From NCBI GenBank assembly GCA_037445065.1, contig JBBILD010000001.1, forward strand, positions 96,001 to 160,000: a DNA stretch of 64,000 nt. Reading direction: 5' to 3'. The position numbers and the translations under genes are program-made. This stretch comes from Myxococcales bacterium (GTDB taxonomy: Bacteria > Desulfobacterota > Binatia > HRBIN30). Positions 17,097-23,339 of this stretch are shown piece after piece. Below the pieces are notes generated by a model. The model was given only the letters and a program-made list of their open reading frames with translations, was not told the DNA's origin and made no database searches. The number at the start of each line of letters is the position of its first letter. Position 1 is the first letter of the stretch.

Positions 17097-19322
17097 ATGA
17101 CGGCGGACCCGCAGTCGCCTGCCTTCGAGAGCGAGCTTTCGGATGACGAGCGCCGTCGCAGGCGGCGTGAGGCGTGGCTCATCCTGATCGGTCTCTTGCT
17201 CTTTGTTGTGCTGACCTGGCTGACGGTGGCGCGGGCGCCGGAAGGGGGAGTTTTCGGCAACAGCACGTTTTCCTTCCTCCTCATCAATGTCAACCTGCTA
17301 CTGCTGATTCTCCTTGTCTTCCTGGTGACTCGGAACTTGGTCAAACTCGTGGCGGAACGGCGGCGTGGAATTTTTGGGTCGCGCCTGCGCAGCCGCTTAG
17401 TGGCCGCGTTCCTGCTGATCACCCTGGGACCGAGTGTCCTCTTGTTCTTCGTGGCCCAAGGATTCTTGCAGGCCGTTTTCACTAGTTGGTTCAACGTTCG
17501 CGTAGAGTCCGCGCTTCGCAACTCGGTGCAGGTGTCTCAGAGTTACTACCAGTTCGCTGCGAATGGTGCGATTCACTTCGCTCGCGAACTGGCACGTGGA
17601 TTGGGCGAACGCTGGTTACTGGAGTCGCGCGGGACCGAGATTGCTGGTTGGCTGGAAAGTAAACGAGCGGAGTACGGACTTGCGATGGTGGGGCTTTGGA
17701 ACCAAGGGGGGAGCCCGCTGGCGATGGCGCGAGAGAAACAGATGCACAACGCTCCACTGGCAGATCCAGCCGCGATTCGGGAGGCTCTGGCCGGTGGAGA
17801 AGCGGCCGACACGATGCGCTGGGGGAGGTCGGACGTGGTTTGGGTAGCCGTTCCGGTTCGCGACCCCGGAGGAGCGGTGGTTGCGGCTTTGGGAGTGGCA
17901 TACTGGGTGCCGCGCAGCGTGAGCGAATTGACGCGGGCAATCGCCCGTTCATACGCGGAGTACCGACAGTTGGAGATTTTGCGCCAGCCGATCAAAAACA
18001 GTTACATACTCACACTGGCACTCATTACGTTGGTGCTGATTTTTTCCGGAACCTGGTTCGGGATCCGGCAGGCGCGAAGAATCTCGAAGCCGTTGCTGGA
18101 ACTCGCCGCTGGAACTCGCGAGGTGGCACGGGGGAATTGGAGTTACCGGATCGAACCCCCGGGCGATCACGAGATTGCCTTGCTTGTCGAAGCGTTCAAT
18201 CAAATGACGGCGGAGCTGGAGCAAACGAACCGGGAACTCGTGCAGCGCCGAACGTACGTGGAAAACCTCCTGGCGAACATTGGAGCAGGAGTGCTGTCGT
18301 TGGATTCCACCGGCGTGGTGACCACGGTCAACCCAGCGGCCGAGCGCTTGCTCGGAGTCGCAGCCAGCAGCGCACTGGGTAAGCATTGGGGTGCAGTGTT
18401 TGCTGGCAGCGGCTGGAGCAAGCTCCAGGAGATGGTGGCTGAGGCAACCGTAGAACCTAGGAGAGAAATCCAGCGACAGATGCAGCTGACCTCGTCGGGA
18501 GAGGGTCGGGTTGTGCTGGTCACAGCAACGCCTCTGGGGGAAGGAACGCAGGGTAGGCAAGGTCTGATGCTGTTTTTTGAGGATGTTACCCACCTCATGC
18601 GGGTACAGCGGATGGAGGCTTGGCGTGAGGTTGCGCGCCGCCTTGCACACGAAATCAAGAACCCGCTGACCCCGATTCAACTGTCCGCGCAACGGTTGGA
18701 GAAGCGGCTGCTGCCGCTCCTTTCACCCGAGGACCGCGCGATCGTCGAAGAGTGCACGGAAACGATTGTCCAGGAGGTTGAGCACCTGAAACGACTGGTT
18801 ACGGAGTTCTCTCGGTTTGCGCGCTTGCCTGCAGTGCAGTTGGTGCCGAGCGACGTCAACGCATTGGTGGAAGACACGGTGCGTATGTTCCGCAGTGGAC
18901 AGCCGAAGCTCGAGGTGCGTTTTTACCCAGGCTCGGGACTGCCACTGGTTGAGCTCGACCGCGACGCGATTAAGCGCGCGCTGTGGAATCTGCTCGATAA
19001 CGCTGCCGCGGCAGTGGCGGAGGAAGCATCGCCCCGGGTTGAGGTGCGCACGGAATACCATCCCGACGCGGGCGCGGTTCGCATCGAGGTGGCCGACAAT
19101 GGTTGTGGTATCCCCCGCGATGCGAAGGCGCGGTTGTTCGAGCCTTACTTTTCGACCAAGCCGGAAGGCACCGGGCTGGGACTTGCCATCGTGGCCTCGA
19201 TCGCGGCGGAGCATCAGGCTTACGTGCACGTGACGGATAATCTTCCGAAGGGGGCGCGCTTTGTACTCGAATTTCCATTGCGATCCTTGAAAGCGCTGCG
19301 TCCTTCGGCTGTAGGAGCGTAG
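17097..19322 (+). CDS. NtrY-type sensor histidine kinase (TM, periplasmic, HAMP, PAS, HisKA, HATPase)
   Basis: H-box AWREVARRLAHEIKNPLTPIQLSAQRL, N-box NLLDNA, DNGCGI, FEPYFSTK, GTGLGL; N-terminal GSRLRSRL and SWFN features typical of NtrY. Confidence 0.92.
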   Translation: MTADPQSPAFESELSDDERRRRRREAWLILIGLLLFVVLTWLTVARAPEGGVFGNSTFSFLLINVNLLLLILLVFLVTRNLVKLVAERRRGIFGSRLRSRLVAAFLLITLGPSVLLFFVAQGFLQAVFTSWFNVRVESALRNSVQVSQSYYQFAANGAIHFARELARGLGERWLLESRGTEIAGWLESKRAEYGLAMVGLWNQGGSPLAMAREKQMHNAPLADPAAIREALAGGEAADTMRWGRSDVVWVAVPVRDPGGAVVAALGVAYWVPRSVSELTRAIARSYAEYRQLEILRQPIKNSYILTLALITLVLIFSGTWFGIRQARRISKPLLELAAGTREVARGNWSYRIEPPGDHEIALLVEAFNQMTAELEQTNRELVQRRTYVENLLANIGAGVLSLDSTGVVTTVNPAAERLLGVAASSALGKHWGAVFAGSGWSKLQEMVAEATVEPRREIQRQMQLTSSGEGRVVLVTATPLGEGTQGRQGLMLFFEDVTHLMRVQRMEAWREVARRLAHEIKNPLTPIQLSAQRLEKRLLPLLSPEDRAIVEECTETIVQEVEHLKRLVTEFSRFARLPAVQLVPSDVNALVEDTVRMFRSGQPKLEVRFYPGSGLPLVELDRDAIKRALWNLLDNAAAAVAEEASPRVEVRTEYHPDAGAVRIEVADNGCGIPRDAKARLFEPYFSTKPEGTGLGLAIVASIAAEHQAYVHVTDNLPKGARFVLEFPLRSLKALRPSAVGA

Positions 19323-19450
19323 CCTTGGTGTTCTGGGTGAGTAAGAAAGGTGGGGCTACCGCTTGGGCGTTACGCTGCGAACCTTCGCTCGCCTGAGATT
19401 CCGGTGGCAGCAGCCGGAACCAGGTGCGAAAGTCGGTGGGAGGAGGAGCC

Positions 19451-20728
19451 GTGACAACAGTTTTGGTTGTGGATGACGAAGCTCACATCCGTTCCTCGCT
19501 GCGTGGAATTTTGTCGGAAGAAGGCATGCACGTGGTGGAGGCGGCGAACGGGCGAGAAGCCCTGGCTTTGCTCGAACAATGTAGGCCTGACCTGGTCGTG
19601 CTCGACGTCTGGATGCCCGAGGTAGATGGTCTAGAGTTCTTGCGCGCCATCCAGAACCGGGCCCAGGCGCCCGCGGTCTTGATGATTTCCGGCCATGGCA
19701 ACATCGAGACCGCGGTCAAAGCCACACAACTGGGAGCCGTAGATTTTATCGAAAAGCCATTCTCGCTTGCGGGATTCCTGGGTGCGGTTGAACGCGCCCT
19801 GCGCCGCCAGCAGGTTCAAAACCAGCAGGATCCCCACCCTGCCTCCCCGCTCCCTACGAGTAGCCGCTCGGTGGAGGGGGTTGCTCCGCAAGTCCGTGGG
19901 CGTTTTCGGCAACGGACGGTTGCGCGGAGCATGGTCGATACCGGAACGGGTTTGCATAGCGGAGTAAAAACAGGACTGATCTTACAGCCCATGCCGCCAG
20001 GTTCGGGGATCGTGTTCTCGAACCTTTCCGCCGAGACGCCCGTACCCGCTCATTTGGACTTCGTGGACTCCACAGGCTACGCCACCACATTGCATCGCGC
20101 CGGGGTGACCATCCGTACGGTCGAGCACTTACTGGCCGCGCTCCATGCGTACCGAGTCACGAACTTGTTCGTGAAAGTCCAAGGGGAAGTCCCGATTATG
20201 GACGGTTCTGCGCAGCGTTGGTGCGAGCTGATCGAGAGCGCTGGGGTGGAGGAGCAGGACGCTTGGGCCGAGGAATACGCGGTGCGCGAGGTCGTGGAGA
20301 TAAGGCGCAGCGAGGAGGAGTGGATTCGGATCGAGCCCTTCGACAGACTCGCAGTGACGTACGTGCTCGAATATCCGCCACCCGTGGGCAGGCAAGAGTA
20401 TTCCTTTGTGTTGCAGGACCCGCACAGTTTCCGGGAGCAGATTGCACCCGCGCGCACGTTCGGATTCGTGAAGGACATGAAGCTCTTAGCCTCGATGGGC
20501 TTAGCGTCCGGCGGCCGCTTAGATAACTGCATTCTGATCGACGACGAAAAAATCGTGAACACCACCTTGCGGTTCCCTGAAGAACTCGCTCGCCACAAGA
20601 TCCTCGACATCTGTGGCGACATGTATTTGCTGGGCCGGCCGCTGCGCGGGAAGATCACTGCGAAAAGAACCGGTCACTCCGAAAACATCGCCTTACTTCG
20701 CAAGCTTCGCAGTCAGTTCGAGGGGTGA
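19451..20728 (+). CDS. lpxC: Fusion of an NtrX-like response-regulator receiver domain and UDP-3-O-acyl-N-acetylglucosamine deacetylase
   Basis: REC: VVDDE, LDVWMP, MISGHGNIETAVKAT, FIEKPF. LpxC: QRTV, GTGLHSG, TVEHLLAAL, EVPIMDGSA, APARTFGF, RHKILD, TGH. GTG start after AGGAGG. Confidence 0.92.
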   Translation: MTTVLVVDDEAHIRSSLRGILSEEGMHVVEAANGREALALLEQCRPDLVVLDVWMPEVDGLEFLRAIQNRAQAPAVLMISGHGNIETAVKATQLGAVDFIEKPFSLAGFLGAVERALRRQQVQNQQDPHPASPLPTSSRSVEGVAPQVRGRFRQRTVARSMVDTGTGLHSGVKTGLILQPMPPGSGIVFSNLSAETPVPAHLDFVDSTGYATTLHRAGVTIRTVEHLLAALHAYRVTNLFVKVQGEVPIMDGSAQRWCELIESAGVEEQDAWAEEYAVREVVEIRRSEEEWIRIEPFDRLAVTYVLEYPPPVGRQEYSFVLQDPHSFREQIAPARTFGFVKDMKLLASMGLASGGRLDNCILIDDEKIVNTTLRFPEELARHKILDICGDMYLLGRPLRGKITAKRTGHSENIALLRKLRSQFEG

Positions 20729-20861
20729 GACAGGCGCTGGCCCCCCCTGTGCCGCCAGCGACAATGCATTCGTGTTCAGCAGCGAACGCTTCCCCTGCGA
20801 GGAGACACGCCGCCGGCCTGAACCAGACGCGAAAGGCGGGCGCGGAGAAGACTCGCGTGCT

Positions 20862-22055
20862 TCAACGTTGCACCACCGTGGCAGCAAGGCGATGACTGCG
20901 CCGGATTTCCCGGGCAACCCGCTGTGCTTGTTTGGGGCTCGGGAAATCTCCTACCGTCACCCGATACACGGCCTGGCGCTTGGATCGGCCCTGTTCGATT
21001 TTGGCGGGGTAGCCGGAGCGGTCGAGCGATTTTTGTACCCGCTCTGCGAGCGCATAGTCCCGAAAGTTGCCCAGACGCACTGCGTAGGCCGAGCGTTTCT
21101 GTGCGCTTCCCTGCCCTACTTCGTCACCCCCGCCGCGTGTGGTCTCGCCGCTCCCTGCCACTTGCAGAGTTTCAGGAAATACCTCCGGCCACGATTCACC
21201 TTCCAATGCTGCGGCCAGCAGGCGTTTGATATCCCCCCATAGATCAGTGGAGCCGAGCACTGCAAAACTGACGCTCCGCTCACCCGCCCAAGCTGCGCCG
21301 ACGAAGCAGCGTTTTGCCGCCCGAGTCCACCCTGTTTTGCCCACAACTCGAAGGTGGTAGTCGCCGAGCAAGCGATTGTGATTGCGAAGCGCAATGCGTC
21401 GCATTGAGCCTGACGTCGGCCGGATCTCTCCCGTACGCGTGCTCACGATTGCTTCGAACAAAGGATGGCGGAGTGCATACCGGAAAATGACGGCCAAGTC
21501 CCGCGCACTCGATACGTGCCGATCATCGGGCAACCCGTGAGGATTGACAAAGTGTGTGTTTCGCGCCCCCAATTTCCAGGCCAGCGCATTCATCCGTTCC
21601 GCGAAGGAAGCAACCGAGCCTGCCAACCCCTCGGCAATGACCACACTGGCGTCATTGGCCGAATTGAGCAGCACCGCGTAGACAAGATCCGCAAGCCGCA
21701 GGGTCATTCCCGGTTTGAGCCCCAGCTTTGAAGCCGGGGTCGCCGCAGCTTCTTTGGAAACCGGAAAGGACTCCTGCATACGTCCGCTCTGGATTGCCAG
21801 CAGGGCAGTGACCACTTTCGTTGTGCTGGCGGGGGGTAGGGGCGTATCCGGCTCGTGTGCCCACAACACGGACCCGGTTGCGTTGTCCAGCACGATTGCG
21901 GCACGAGCCGTGAGCAGGCGGGGTGAGTTCCCTCCGTTCGCGGCTTCGACACCGGACGCACCCCACCCCGCAGCCCAAAACGCGATGACCGCCAAAAAAC
22001 GCCATGTCCGCACCTGCACCACCTCCTCAGCCGCGAGTTTCCTCCAACCCAACAC
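20862..22055 (-). CDS. D-alanyl-D-alanine carboxypeptidase (peptidase S11) with C-terminal SPOR domain
   Basis: SxxK (ASTTK), SAN, NPHGL, KTG motifs; C-terminal YAVRLGNF...YRVTVGDF SPOR pattern. Confidence 0.88.
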   Translation of the reverse strand: MLGWRKLAAEEVVQVRTWRFLAVIAFWAAGWGASGVEAANGGNSPRLLTARAAIVLDNATGSVLWAHEPDTPLPPASTTKVVTALLAIQSGRMQESFPVSKEAAATPASKLGLKPGMTLRLADLVYAVLLNSANDASVVIAEGLAGSVASFAERMNALAWKLGARNTHFVNPHGLPDDRHVSSARDLAVIFRYALRHPLFEAIVSTRTGEIRPTSGSMRRIALRNHNRLLGDYHLRVVGKTGWTRAAKRCFVGAAWAGERSVSFAVLGSTDLWGDIKRLLAAALEGESWPEVFPETLQVAGSGETTRGGGDEVGQGSAQKRSAYAVRLGNFRDYALAERVQKSLDRSGYPAKIEQGRSKRQAVYRVTVGDFPSPKQAQRVAREIRRSHRLAATVVQR

Positions 22056-22115: not shown

Positions 22116-23219
22116 CTATTGAGCCCGCAGGTCTTCGTCAAGCCACGGCGCCGCTGGTGCAGCGTGTGTCAGCACCGAGCGGAACAGAAACACACTGAGA
22201 ATGAGAGGCAGCACGTAGTACGCGACACGAAAAATCAGTACTGCAATGACCGCGACCTCGAATGGCACGCCCAATCCGGCAAAGATGGCGGCCATTGAGC
22301 CTTCCATGATTCCCAGACCACCCGGAATAAACGACACCAAGGACAAGACAATCCCAACTGCGAAGCCAACAATCACGAAACTGAAGGGTAAAGGATAACC
22401 CACGGCCAGAAACGCCGTGTGCAGGATGAGCAGAGTTGCCACCCAGTCTACCGCGATCCAGAAAATCGGCCCCAGCATGTGGGTCTTCCGTTCCATCAAG
22501 AACTCGATGCCGCGGTCTAGATTTCTTTGAAAACGCCAGATCCGAACACGCCGGAGTTTGAGCCGGGGGGCTACCCGGTGCACTAGCCAGTGCCCTACCT
22601 CGGCGAGCAAAAACAAGGTGCGCCGGCGCACGCGGCGGTGAATGAGTAAGAAAACGGCAATCAGGGACGCGATGGTGAAAACCGCGGTAAGCACGGCGCT
22701 GGTGATGAGTGTGAGGCCAGTGAGTTCGTGGGTTTTGAGCAGGTAGAAAAACCCGGCAAGCACGAACAGCAGCAACATCAGGTTGGTGATGAACGTTTGC
22801 ACCAAGGAAATCGTCACGGCTCGCCCAGACGGCACCTTGAGCCGCAGAAAGAAGTACATCCGCACGGCAAAACCGCTGAGCCCTCCACTCGTGATCAAGT
22901 GGTTGATGGTGTTTGCGACGAAGGTCACCTTGAGCATGTCCCAGAACGGGACCCAGTACCCGGCAGCGCGCGCAATGTCTTGATAGGACCGGGCCATCGC
23001 CACATAACTCGCCATGGAGCACAGCACGGGTAAAAGCAGGCGGGAGGGGTGCACCTTTTGCGTCGTGCGCCAAAGCTCGCGTGCATCGGAAAACGCAAAA
23101 AGAGCCACCAAAGCCGCGAGGCCGAAAACCAGCAGCCAGGAAAGCCACTGTGGCCGCCGCAATAGGCGCTGGGCGAGAGGATCCGCCGCCGCAACCTCGG
23201 CATTGGAGTTTTTTGCCAT
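22116..23219 (-). CDS. Lysylphosphatidylglycerol synthase TM-region / flippase-like membrane protein (UPF0104)
   Basis: Multi-TM protein, PGGLGIMEG motif, LIFRVAYY. Confidence 0.82.
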   Translation of the reverse strand: MAKNSNAEVAAADPLAQRLLRRPQWLSWLLVFGLAALVALFAFSDARELWRTTQKVHPSRLLLPVLCSMASYVAMARSYQDIARAAGYWVPFWDMLKVTFVANTINHLITSGGLSGFAVRMYFFLRLKVPSGRAVTISLVQTFITNLMLLLFVLAGFFYLLKTHELTGLTLITSAVLTAVFTIASLIAVFLLIHRRVRRRTLFLLAEVGHWLVHRVAPRLKLRRVRIWRFQRNLDRGIEFLMERKTHMLGPIFWIAVDWVATLLILHTAFLAVGYPLPFSFVIVGFAVGIVLSLVSFIPGGLGIMEGSMAAIFAGLGVPFEVAVIAVLIFRVAYYVLPLILSVFLFRSVLTHAAPAAPWLDEDLRAQ

Positions 23220-23339
23220 CGTGCCAACGCGTGAAAGAAGCAGCGAATTACTTTTGCTGCGAGGAGAGGTCAAGGATGCTCGAACTTGTGGGCTTGCCAG
23301 CGAGTCGCTAAGCAGGGGCGTACTCTCGTTGGCGCGCCT

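Follow-up and report, generated by a model that had tools for sequence, protein, structure and literature searches.

In a 64,000-nucleotide (nt) stretch of DNA from a metagenome-derived genome of the Binatia (positions 96,001 to 160,000 of contig JBBILD010000001.1, GenBank assembly GCA_037445065.1; hereafter the window), the gene of an NtrY-type sensor histidine kinase was found to be followed by a single open reading frame (ORF) that joins an NtrX-like receiver domain (REC) to a complete LpxC. LpxC catalyses the committed step in the making of lipid A. In E. coli it is controlled through proteolysis by FtsH, LapB and YejM, and NtrX normally carries AAA+ and helix-turn-helix (HTH) output domains. 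We propose that the two genes encode a two-component system with an enzyme as its output, and that phosphorylation-gated LpxC is the best reading of the locus, with a probability of roughly 0.65. We favour gating because the active sites of both domains are invariant, the kinase is syntenic with the fusion gene, the fusion gene is the sole LpxC of the genome, the fusion is old and widely spread, and the handles of E. coli-type control are missing.

A receiver fused to a complete LpxC

The fusion protein consists of a receiver, a linker and an LpxC domain (Table 1). Its residues are numbered here from a GTG codon at 19424, and subtracting 9 gives the numbering from the GTG codon at 19451. The receiver scored 112 bits against Response_reg (PF00072; cut-off 30.2) and holds the phospho-site residues D17, D18, D61 (in LDVWMP), S89 (ISGHG) and K111 (EKPF). 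AlphaFold2 (AF2) modelled it as a (beta-alpha)5 fold, with five strand-helix pairs within aa 12–134 and a predicted local distance difference test score (pLDDT) of 86–98. Its best NCBIfam family was NtrX, with 119.8 bits over profile positions 3–127. Against the cut-off of 600 bits for the NtrX equivalog (NF051870) this does not make the protein an NtrX, and only REC, linker and LpxC are present, without AAA+ or HTH domains.

The C-terminal part scored 288 bits against the LpxC family (PF03331; cut-off 27) over profile positions 1–266 of 268, and its 257.2 bits against the lpxC equivalog TIGR00325 exceed the cut-off of 187.25. Residues E234/H235 (TVEHLL), T345, H391/K392/D395 (HKILD), D399 and H418 (TGH) align with the EH, RTFGF, HKILD, GD and GH motifs of Pseudomonas aeruginosa LpxC. 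We take these residues to be the zinc ligands (His, His, Asp) and the catalytic Glu, His, Thr, Lys and Asp. Foldseek matched the fold to the LpxC structures of A. aeolicus, P. aeruginosa and E. coli in the PDB, with target-normalised TM-scores (TMt) of 0.82–0.94 and root-mean-square deviations of 1.6–2.6 Å over approximately 275–285 columns. The same search found no PDB chain that covers both the REC and the LpxC halves (query-normalised TM-score, TMq, at most 0.60).

Among 60 aligned fused proteins, no column of the linker between the two domains is conserved, and the linker's pLDDT falls below 50 at aa 140–156. Apart from this segment and aa 1–6, no disorder was seen in the AF2 model of the whole two-domain protein, which reached a pLDDT of 90.2 and a predicted TM-score (pTM) of 0.87; the high pTM hints at a defined arrangement of REC and LpxC. 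A complex prediction with the LpxC domain (aa 158–434) and the receiver (aa 8–136) as separate chains gave a score of 0.05 against a mark of 0.32; it was run without controls and counts neither way.

An earlier note on this DNA, made from the sequence alone, had described an intact NtrY-like kinase gene followed after about 130 bp by one uninterrupted ORF, in which an NtrX-type receiver with all its phospho-residues leads through a Pro/Gln linker into a full LpxC with its zinc and catalytic residues. Our analysis agrees with this description throughout. The ORF call and the Pfam matches gave one unbroken frame with REC, linker and LpxC, the kinase is intact and lies 128 nt upstream of GTG 19451, and the profiles together with the key residues showed the LpxC that follows the linker to be complete. 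A check of the translations placed every named residue of kinase, REC and LpxC at its motif, and the receiver is well described as NtrX-like, NtrX being its best NCBIfam family.

When 60 fused proteins with 44–78% identity to the query were aligned, D17, D18, D61, S89 and K111 of the receiver were invariant in all 60, and so were E234, H235, T345, H391, K392, D395, D399 and H418 of LpxC. Judged by this alignment, both halves of the fusion protein are under constraint. Separately, at 17 LpxC positions (aa 169, 171, 184, 241, 248, 251, 267, 304, 315, 317, 318, 322, 342, 370, 380, 401 and 416) one residue was shared by at least 90% of 37 fused domains and occurred in at most 25% of 13 standalone LpxCs. 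These positions may be signatures of the fused clade or a candidate REC-facing surface.

The source genome is metagenome-derived, comprises 46 contigs and is 97.7% complete, an origin that might suggest an artefact of assembly or gene calling. To examine the junction, contigs of four other runs were aligned to positions 18900–20900. A 79,285-nt contig from an independent sample, which is not the probable source of the assembly, spans this region in one piece. It differs from the window by 26 substitutions, and its sole indels lie in the intergenic gap (19362) and past the stop codon (20741). Fourteen of the differences fall inside the fusion ORF, where 8 are synonymous and 6 non-synonymous, and none affects an invariant residue. 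The objection of a chimeric or mis-assembled junction, raised in the earlier note, fails on this contig. With one open frame, a level GC content across the REC/LpxC junction, no indel in the ORF of the spanning contig and the fused form in 39 of the 41 genomes of the order as well as in all 360 homologs listed, the artefact explanation is already refuted and its probability is negligible. Stretches of 18900–20900 also recur, highly identical and on short contigs only, in subsurface samples and in the hot-spring metagenomes that two other studies produced.

The kinase, and the spread and origin of the fusion

The upstream gene encodes, in this order, the Pfam domains NtrY_N, HAMP, PAS, HisKA and HATPase_c, and by this domain layout the kinase is of the NtrY type. 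The NtrY_N match (PF19312; cut-off 23.2) reached 31.6 bits and covers profile positions 6–132 of 291 only. A hydropathy scan gave hydrophobic segments at approximately aa 24–48, 52–87 and 99–132, which are helices in the AF2 model. The N-terminal 340 aa were modelled with a pLDDT of 76 overall and of 85–93 over most of aa 140–290, and the predicted sensor domain matched the extracellular PDC domains of CitA, DcuS and WalK (TMt 0.60–0.75, E 1e-5 to 1e-4; Foldseek). No NtrY model was among the 25 best NCBIfam families of the kinase; the two leading ones, the LIC_11548 family with 261 bits and AtoS with 235 bits, fall well short of their cut-offs. Seven kinases encoded beside fused genes were tested; all seven showed the NtrY_N-HAMP-PAS-HisKA-HATPase_c layout, with NtrY_N over its cut-off in six.

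Synteny was scored from 80 related loci. Three loci with REC outside the retrieved DNA, two with a short upstream region and six with a partial kinase cut by the contig end were set aside. In each of the 69 loci that were left, 2.3 kb or more precede REC; distances were measured from the REC start. A full-length kinase homolog ends at most 500 nt before REC in 58 of these 69 loci (44 with short forms of the fusion, like that of the window, and 14 with the long forms described below), while two loci gave a partial kinase match and nine gave none. The kinase was also present in all three further genomes examined from the same class or order. It is the only gene conserved beside the fusion gene, and the operon has no conserved second receiver gene. 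The pairing of kinase and fusion gene proposed in the earlier note thus recurs across most of the loci scored.

In three genomes (G026, G149 and G182), stop-free frames of 1007–1423 aa raised the possibility of a triple polypeptide of histidine kinase, REC and LpxC. In all three, tblastn showed that kinase and fusion do not share a reading frame, and these long frames are therefore high-GC frame artefacts. In five genomes of the order (G016, G014, G038, G011 and G031), the fusion frame continues upstream past a single TGA or TAA, with frames of up to approximately 1200 aa.

Pseudo-receivers usually lose some of the residues of phospho-chemistry. The five such residues of the fused receiver are invariant in 60 of 60 proteins from several lineages, 58 of 69 loci have the kinase next to the fusion gene, and the phospho-His motif of the window's kinase is intact. 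These observations speak against a receiver that works without phosphorylation, as a structural module for dimerisation, solubility or attachment to the membrane-bound kinase, with LpxC being constitutively active. Such receivers exist, ChxR being a published example, and the lineages without an adjacent kinase (9 of 69 loci, and loci L113–L119) would suit this explanation. We consider it highly improbable.

The fusion is old and widespread, as judged from its occurrence across lineages. Searches with three queries, namely the window protein, the form of the L033 lineage and a Syntrophobacteraceae-labelled form, each gave Response_reg and LpxC together in 120 of the 120 matches listed, or 360 of 360. 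No cultured strain gives its name to any of these 360 homologs, and the approximately one quarter that carry any name have those of metagenome bins. Databases hold thousands of fused proteins, which are labelled simply LpxC, and of the 30 ESM Atlas clusters that lie nearest, 17 contained both domains. The suspicion that no other genome would carry the architecture, which the earlier note had allowed for, fails in view of the many genomes in which a domain-architecture search found it.

At the level of genomes, 39 of 41 from the same order contained a full-length fused match. The same phylum gave the fused form in 48 of 201 genomes, comprising 27 with the full-length short type, 7 with LpxC frames of 450–497 aa (confirmed as REC-LpxC by tblastn in six) and 14 with frames of 690–837 aa; the remaining genomes of the phylum mostly gave LpxC matches of standalone size, and two gave no match. 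In the phylum that holds L033, 46 of 51 genomes gave the short form at full length. Among the Nitrospinota, LpxC lies in frames of 538–962 aa in 28 of 33 genomes, 27 of these frames being at least 674 aa long, and in 22 of the 28 the contig with LpxC also carries a REC match, in a frame of equal length.

The long relatives (677–769 aa) hold Response_reg, Sigma54_activat, AAA_lid_14 and LpxC. In the three that were tested, the first approximately 450 aa matched the NtrX model from positions 3–4 to 444–452 of 452, with scores of 249, 270 and 348 bits, below the 600-bit cut-off; NtrX was the best NCBIfam family of all three. An alignment of 13 long forms with two NtrC-like proteins of the genome showed Walker A to be kept, the GAFTGA loop to be absent and Walker B to read D-S instead of D-E. 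The stretch just before LpxC aligns with the Fis-type HTH region of the NtrC-like proteins. Pfam searches with this segment in isolation gave weak matches at most, with no HTH family significant, and we speak of a remnant of the HTH region on account of the alignment and of the end-to-end match to the NtrX profile. By these comparisons, the long forms carry a decayed AAA+ module between REC and LpxC.

In a tree of 50 LpxC domains, all 37 fused domains were split from the 13 standalone domains, which come from the same phylum, by a branch with 99% support in the Shimodaira-Hasegawa-like approximate likelihood ratio test (SH-aLRT), which is consistent with a single origin of the fusion. Within this group the long forms fall inside the short ones, but at 86% support this placement is weak, so that the tree leaves the order of events unsettled. 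Since the long relatives match the NtrX model from end to end, the fusion derives from an NtrX-like regulator. Going by the domains, the simplest history would start from neighbouring ntrY, ntrX and lpxC genes and lead through an ntrX::lpxC fusion and decay of the AAA+ module to deletion of AAA+ and HTH in the short-form lineages. The earlier note had suggested that the transcription-factor output was replaced by the enzyme itself. This holds insofar as the regulator is joined to LpxC and the short form has neither AAA+ nor HTH; a simple swap it was not, as the long forms keep REC, a decayed AAA+ module and the C-terminal region of NtrX.

The sole LpxC of the cell and its control

The fusion gene is the only PF03331 match in the source genome, in which LpxB is also present, and the only LpxC match in all five fusion-bearing genomes of other lineages that were searched. 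Since it is the sole LpxC match and LpxB is present, the fused protein must supply the lipid A pathway, of which it is the predicted LpxC deacetylase. A search of the source genome for an NtrX equivalog gave 34 matches and none above the cut-off (best 402.6 bits against 600). Thus neither a second lpxC nor a canonical ntrX, on whose presence the earlier note had left its proposal to be checked, was found.

In a 2025 review of lipid A regulation, the FtsH route of E. coli is described as needing a C-terminal degron and the adaptor LapB (PMC12444477). The fusion protein ends with ...LRKLRSQFEG, only 6 residues past the LpxC domain, and the C-terminal degron is therefore absent; the aligned P. 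aeruginosa chain is approximately 25 residues longer. The LapB equivalog NF008757 was not found in the genome, where the best match reached 32.9 bits against a cut-off of 363 with partial matches to the profile, although a very divergent LapB could escape this search. The zinc ribbon of LapB (PF18073) was rejected as a marker: its best match in the genome was RadA, and it also matched the Bacillus, Lactococcus and Corynebacterium controls.

These absences bear on the main rival to control of LpxC activity, which is control of its stability. The receiver could set the amount of LpxC if phosphorylation exposed or hid a degradation signal, or recruited an adaptor for Lon, ClpXP or FtsH, as a functional equivalent of FtsH/LapB. 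Regulated proteolysis is the best-documented form of LpxC control, and Lon has been suggested for the degron-less LpxCs of alphaproteobacteria, according to the same review (PMC12444477). Without a degron-like tail and with no LapB equivalog found, another handle would be needed, and the long disordered linker could serve as a start for unfolding. However, neither a degradation tag nor a gene for an adaptor was identified, and the kinase alone is conserved beside the fusion gene. The comparative evidence is common to both explanations, so that sequence data cannot separate them; we nevertheless hold control of the amount to be unlikely.

A further alternative reverses the flow of information. 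The kinase has an H-E-x-x-N motif (AHEIKNP), which is typical of bifunctional kinase/phosphatases, and it could be shared by many NtrC-like regulators, considering that the NtrX model has 34 matches in the genome, all of them below its cut-off. The LpxC domain might then sense its substrate or product and alter the phosphorylation or dephosphorylation of REC, thereby reporting on lipid A precursors to the kinase or competing for phosphate. Against this stand the invariance of all catalytic residues, beyond those for binding, the lack of a conserved second receiver gene in the operon, and the status of the protein as the only LpxC of the genome, which makes catalysis necessary anyway. We give such a reverse flow very little credence, less than a receiver that acts without phosphorylation.

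For phosphorylation-gated LpxC, we propose the following mechanism. A membrane-bound NtrY-type kinase with a periplasmic PDC/sCache-like sensor would phosphorylate Asp61 of a receiver that is covalently tethered to the only LpxC of the cell. The phosphorylation state of the receiver would then change the extent of UDP-3-O-acyl-GlcNAc deacetylation, and flux into lipid A would be set post-translationally, without a transcription step. Both the phosphotransfer from the kinase to its neighbouring REC and the effect of phosphorylation on LpxC activity are what we infer from the comparative data. Candidate couplings are a CheB-like relief of autoinhibition, or a receiver-driven dimerisation as in NtrC/NtrX-type receivers. 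By a weak analogy, the phosphorylated form may turn LpxC down, because loss of NtrYX raises lpxC expression in two alphaproteobacteria.

Several observations weigh against gating by phosphorylation. The linker of 30–40 residues is disordered and hypervariable, and the coupling would therefore need a docking or dimerisation surface. In the long forms the AAA+ module lies between REC and LpxC, so that a direct REC-LpxC contact is not obviously ancestral. No adjacent kinase of the NtrY type was found in nine of the 69 scored loci (L033, L034, L035, L037, L043, L046, L084, L099 and L101), nor in loci L113–L119 within the 1.3–3 kb fetched upstream; in those lineages the partner would thus be encoded elsewhere or control would be different. 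The loci without a kinase include Syntrophus-labelled ones and the L033 lineage. Two genomes of the phylum, G074 (L119, L131) and G238 (L118, L132), carry a standalone LpxC beside the fused one, and the fused copy is therefore not always the sole source of activity. The fused copy of G074 is highly divergent: its identity is 37–39%, and the tree gives it an end branch of 1.66. Lastly, from the 8 synonymous and 6 non-synonymous strain differences, which are small numbers, the constraint on the fusion ORF looks only moderate.

A broader proposal is that phosphorylation of LpxC by NtrY-type kinases is an ancient and main control of lipid A flux in the Binatia, other Desulfobacterota lineages, the Nitrospinota and the L033 phylum, in place of FtsH/LapB. 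The fusion would then be a Rosetta-stone record of a coupling between NtrYX and LpxC that alphaproteobacteria have kept only as an indirect transcriptional effect. The ligand of the kinase's periplasmic PDC domain would in that case report on the state of the outer membrane or of lipopolysaccharide (LPS), in line with the envelope signal suggested in the earlier note. We offer this tentatively, at somewhat less than even odds.

Locus layout and relation to known systems

The features of the locus are collected in Table 1. The open frame of the fusion gene also permits a GTG start at 19424, which would give a protein of 434 aa (19424–20728, + strand). The true start is likely GTG 19451, which is favoured because it is preceded by the Shine-Dalgarno sequence GGGAGGAGGAG, yields a homolog-like N-terminus (M-x-TVLVVDD) and gives a length of 425 aa, as in the closest relative among the matches listed (425 aa, 98% identity). 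Kinase and fusion genes lie on the same strand and, since the flanking genes are on the other strand, are taken to form a two-gene operon. No sigma-70-like promoter was found at the operon, and terminator-like sites were at chance level (3 found against 4.0 expected).

Table 1. Features of the kinase and fusion genes, in window coordinates
Feature	Coordinates	Strand	Basis
NtrY-type sensor histidine kinase gene, 741 aa	17097..19322	+	ORF call and Pfam domains
NtrY_N membrane region, aa 27–153	17175..17555	+	Pfam PF19312, hydropathy, AF2 helices
Predicted periplasmic PDC/sCache-like sensor, approximately aa 134–294, followed by a fourth membrane helix at approximately aa 298–324	17496..17978	+	AF2 and Foldseek
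HAMP (aa 326–376) and cytoplasmic PAS (aa 388–499)	18072..18593	+	Pfam HAMP 53.4 bits, PAS_4 56.8 bits
HisKA (aa 509–577) and HATPase_c (aa 621–729); His518 of AHEIKNP at nt 18648–18650	18621..19283	+	Pfam and residue check
Intergenic gap, 128 nt, with Shine-Dalgarno GGGAGGAGGAG at 19438–19448	19323..19450	+	Sequence read
REC-linker-LpxC fusion gene, 425 aa from the likely start GTG 19451	19451..20728	+	ORF call and Pfam/NCBIfam
Receiver domain (REC), aa 13–119; phospho-acceptor D61 at nt 19604–19606	19460..19780	+	Pfam Response_reg
Gln/Pro-rich linker, approximately aa 128–160, variable in sequence and length	19805..19903	+	Alignment and AF2 model
LpxC domain, aa 163–428	19910..20707	+	Pfam and TIGR00325

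Convergent to the fusion gene lies a gene (20862–22055, – strand) whose product is a D-Ala-D-Ala carboxypeptidase, matching Peptidase_S11 with 174 bits and carrying a SPOR domain at its C-terminus. Its position is kept in many loci of the Binatia type (approximately 15 of 80 loci) and not in more distant ones. It is adjoined by a gene for a membrane protein of the LPG_synthase_TM family (125.9 bits; 22116–23273, – strand), and together with the LpxC fusion these genes make up a small envelope-related cluster.

Among characterised systems, the locus resembles NtrY/NtrX of alphaproteobacteria (Rhodobacter sphaeroides, Caulobacter crescentus and Brucella) in the domain layout of its kinase and the NtrX affinity of its receiver, and its long relatives match NtrX throughout while lacking GAFTGA. 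The 2025 review reports that NtrYX lowers transcription of lpxC in R. sphaeroides and C. crescentus (PMC12444477). In R. sphaeroides, an 8.8-fold rise in lpxC transcripts and an increase in LPS were reported for cells lacking NtrYX (Lemmer et al. 2020; PMC7240162). The effect is indirect, and that study detected no NtrX site upstream of lpxC. NtrX is a DNA-binding regulator of dozens of genes; in the fusion, the regulator is covalently part of the LpxC protein.

In Desulfovibrio vulgaris, which belongs to the same broad group of bacteria, a two-component system (kinase DVU2931, regulator DVU2934) has lpxC as its only mapped target (Rajeev et al. 2011, PMC3333781; PMC4114195). Control is transcriptional there, exerted by a DNA-binding regulator that is encoded away from lpxC.

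In the literature searched, no account of a receiver-LpxC fusion was found and LpxC was not named as a receiver output; the text of the 2025 review does not contain the words receiver, fused or fusion. The fusion thus seems to be an undescribed mode of LpxC control. LpxC is the control point of LPS synthesis and has long been pursued as an antibiotic target. On its regulation outside the Enterobacteriaceae, the review states that details of other systems 'are still emerging' (PMC12444477). The fusion would lend independent genomic support to the reported link between NtrYX and the envelope. As whole lineages have the fusion as their usual LpxC, it bears on outer-membrane balance in a large share of environmental diderm bacteria.

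The enzymatic response regulators CheB (REC-methylesterase), PleD and WspR (REC-GGDEF) and RpfG (REC-HD-GYP) are known systems of the same kind. REC-HD-GYP regulators are described in a preprint (10.1101/2021.11.05.467447). In all of these a linker ties an N-terminal receiver to a catalytic domain, a cognate kinase is the partner, and phosphorylation is expected to switch the enzyme through dimerisation or relief of autoinhibition. They are signalling enzymes, whereas the output of the fusion is a biosynthetic zinc amidase from an essential pathway, which would be a new addition to the short list of receiver outputs.

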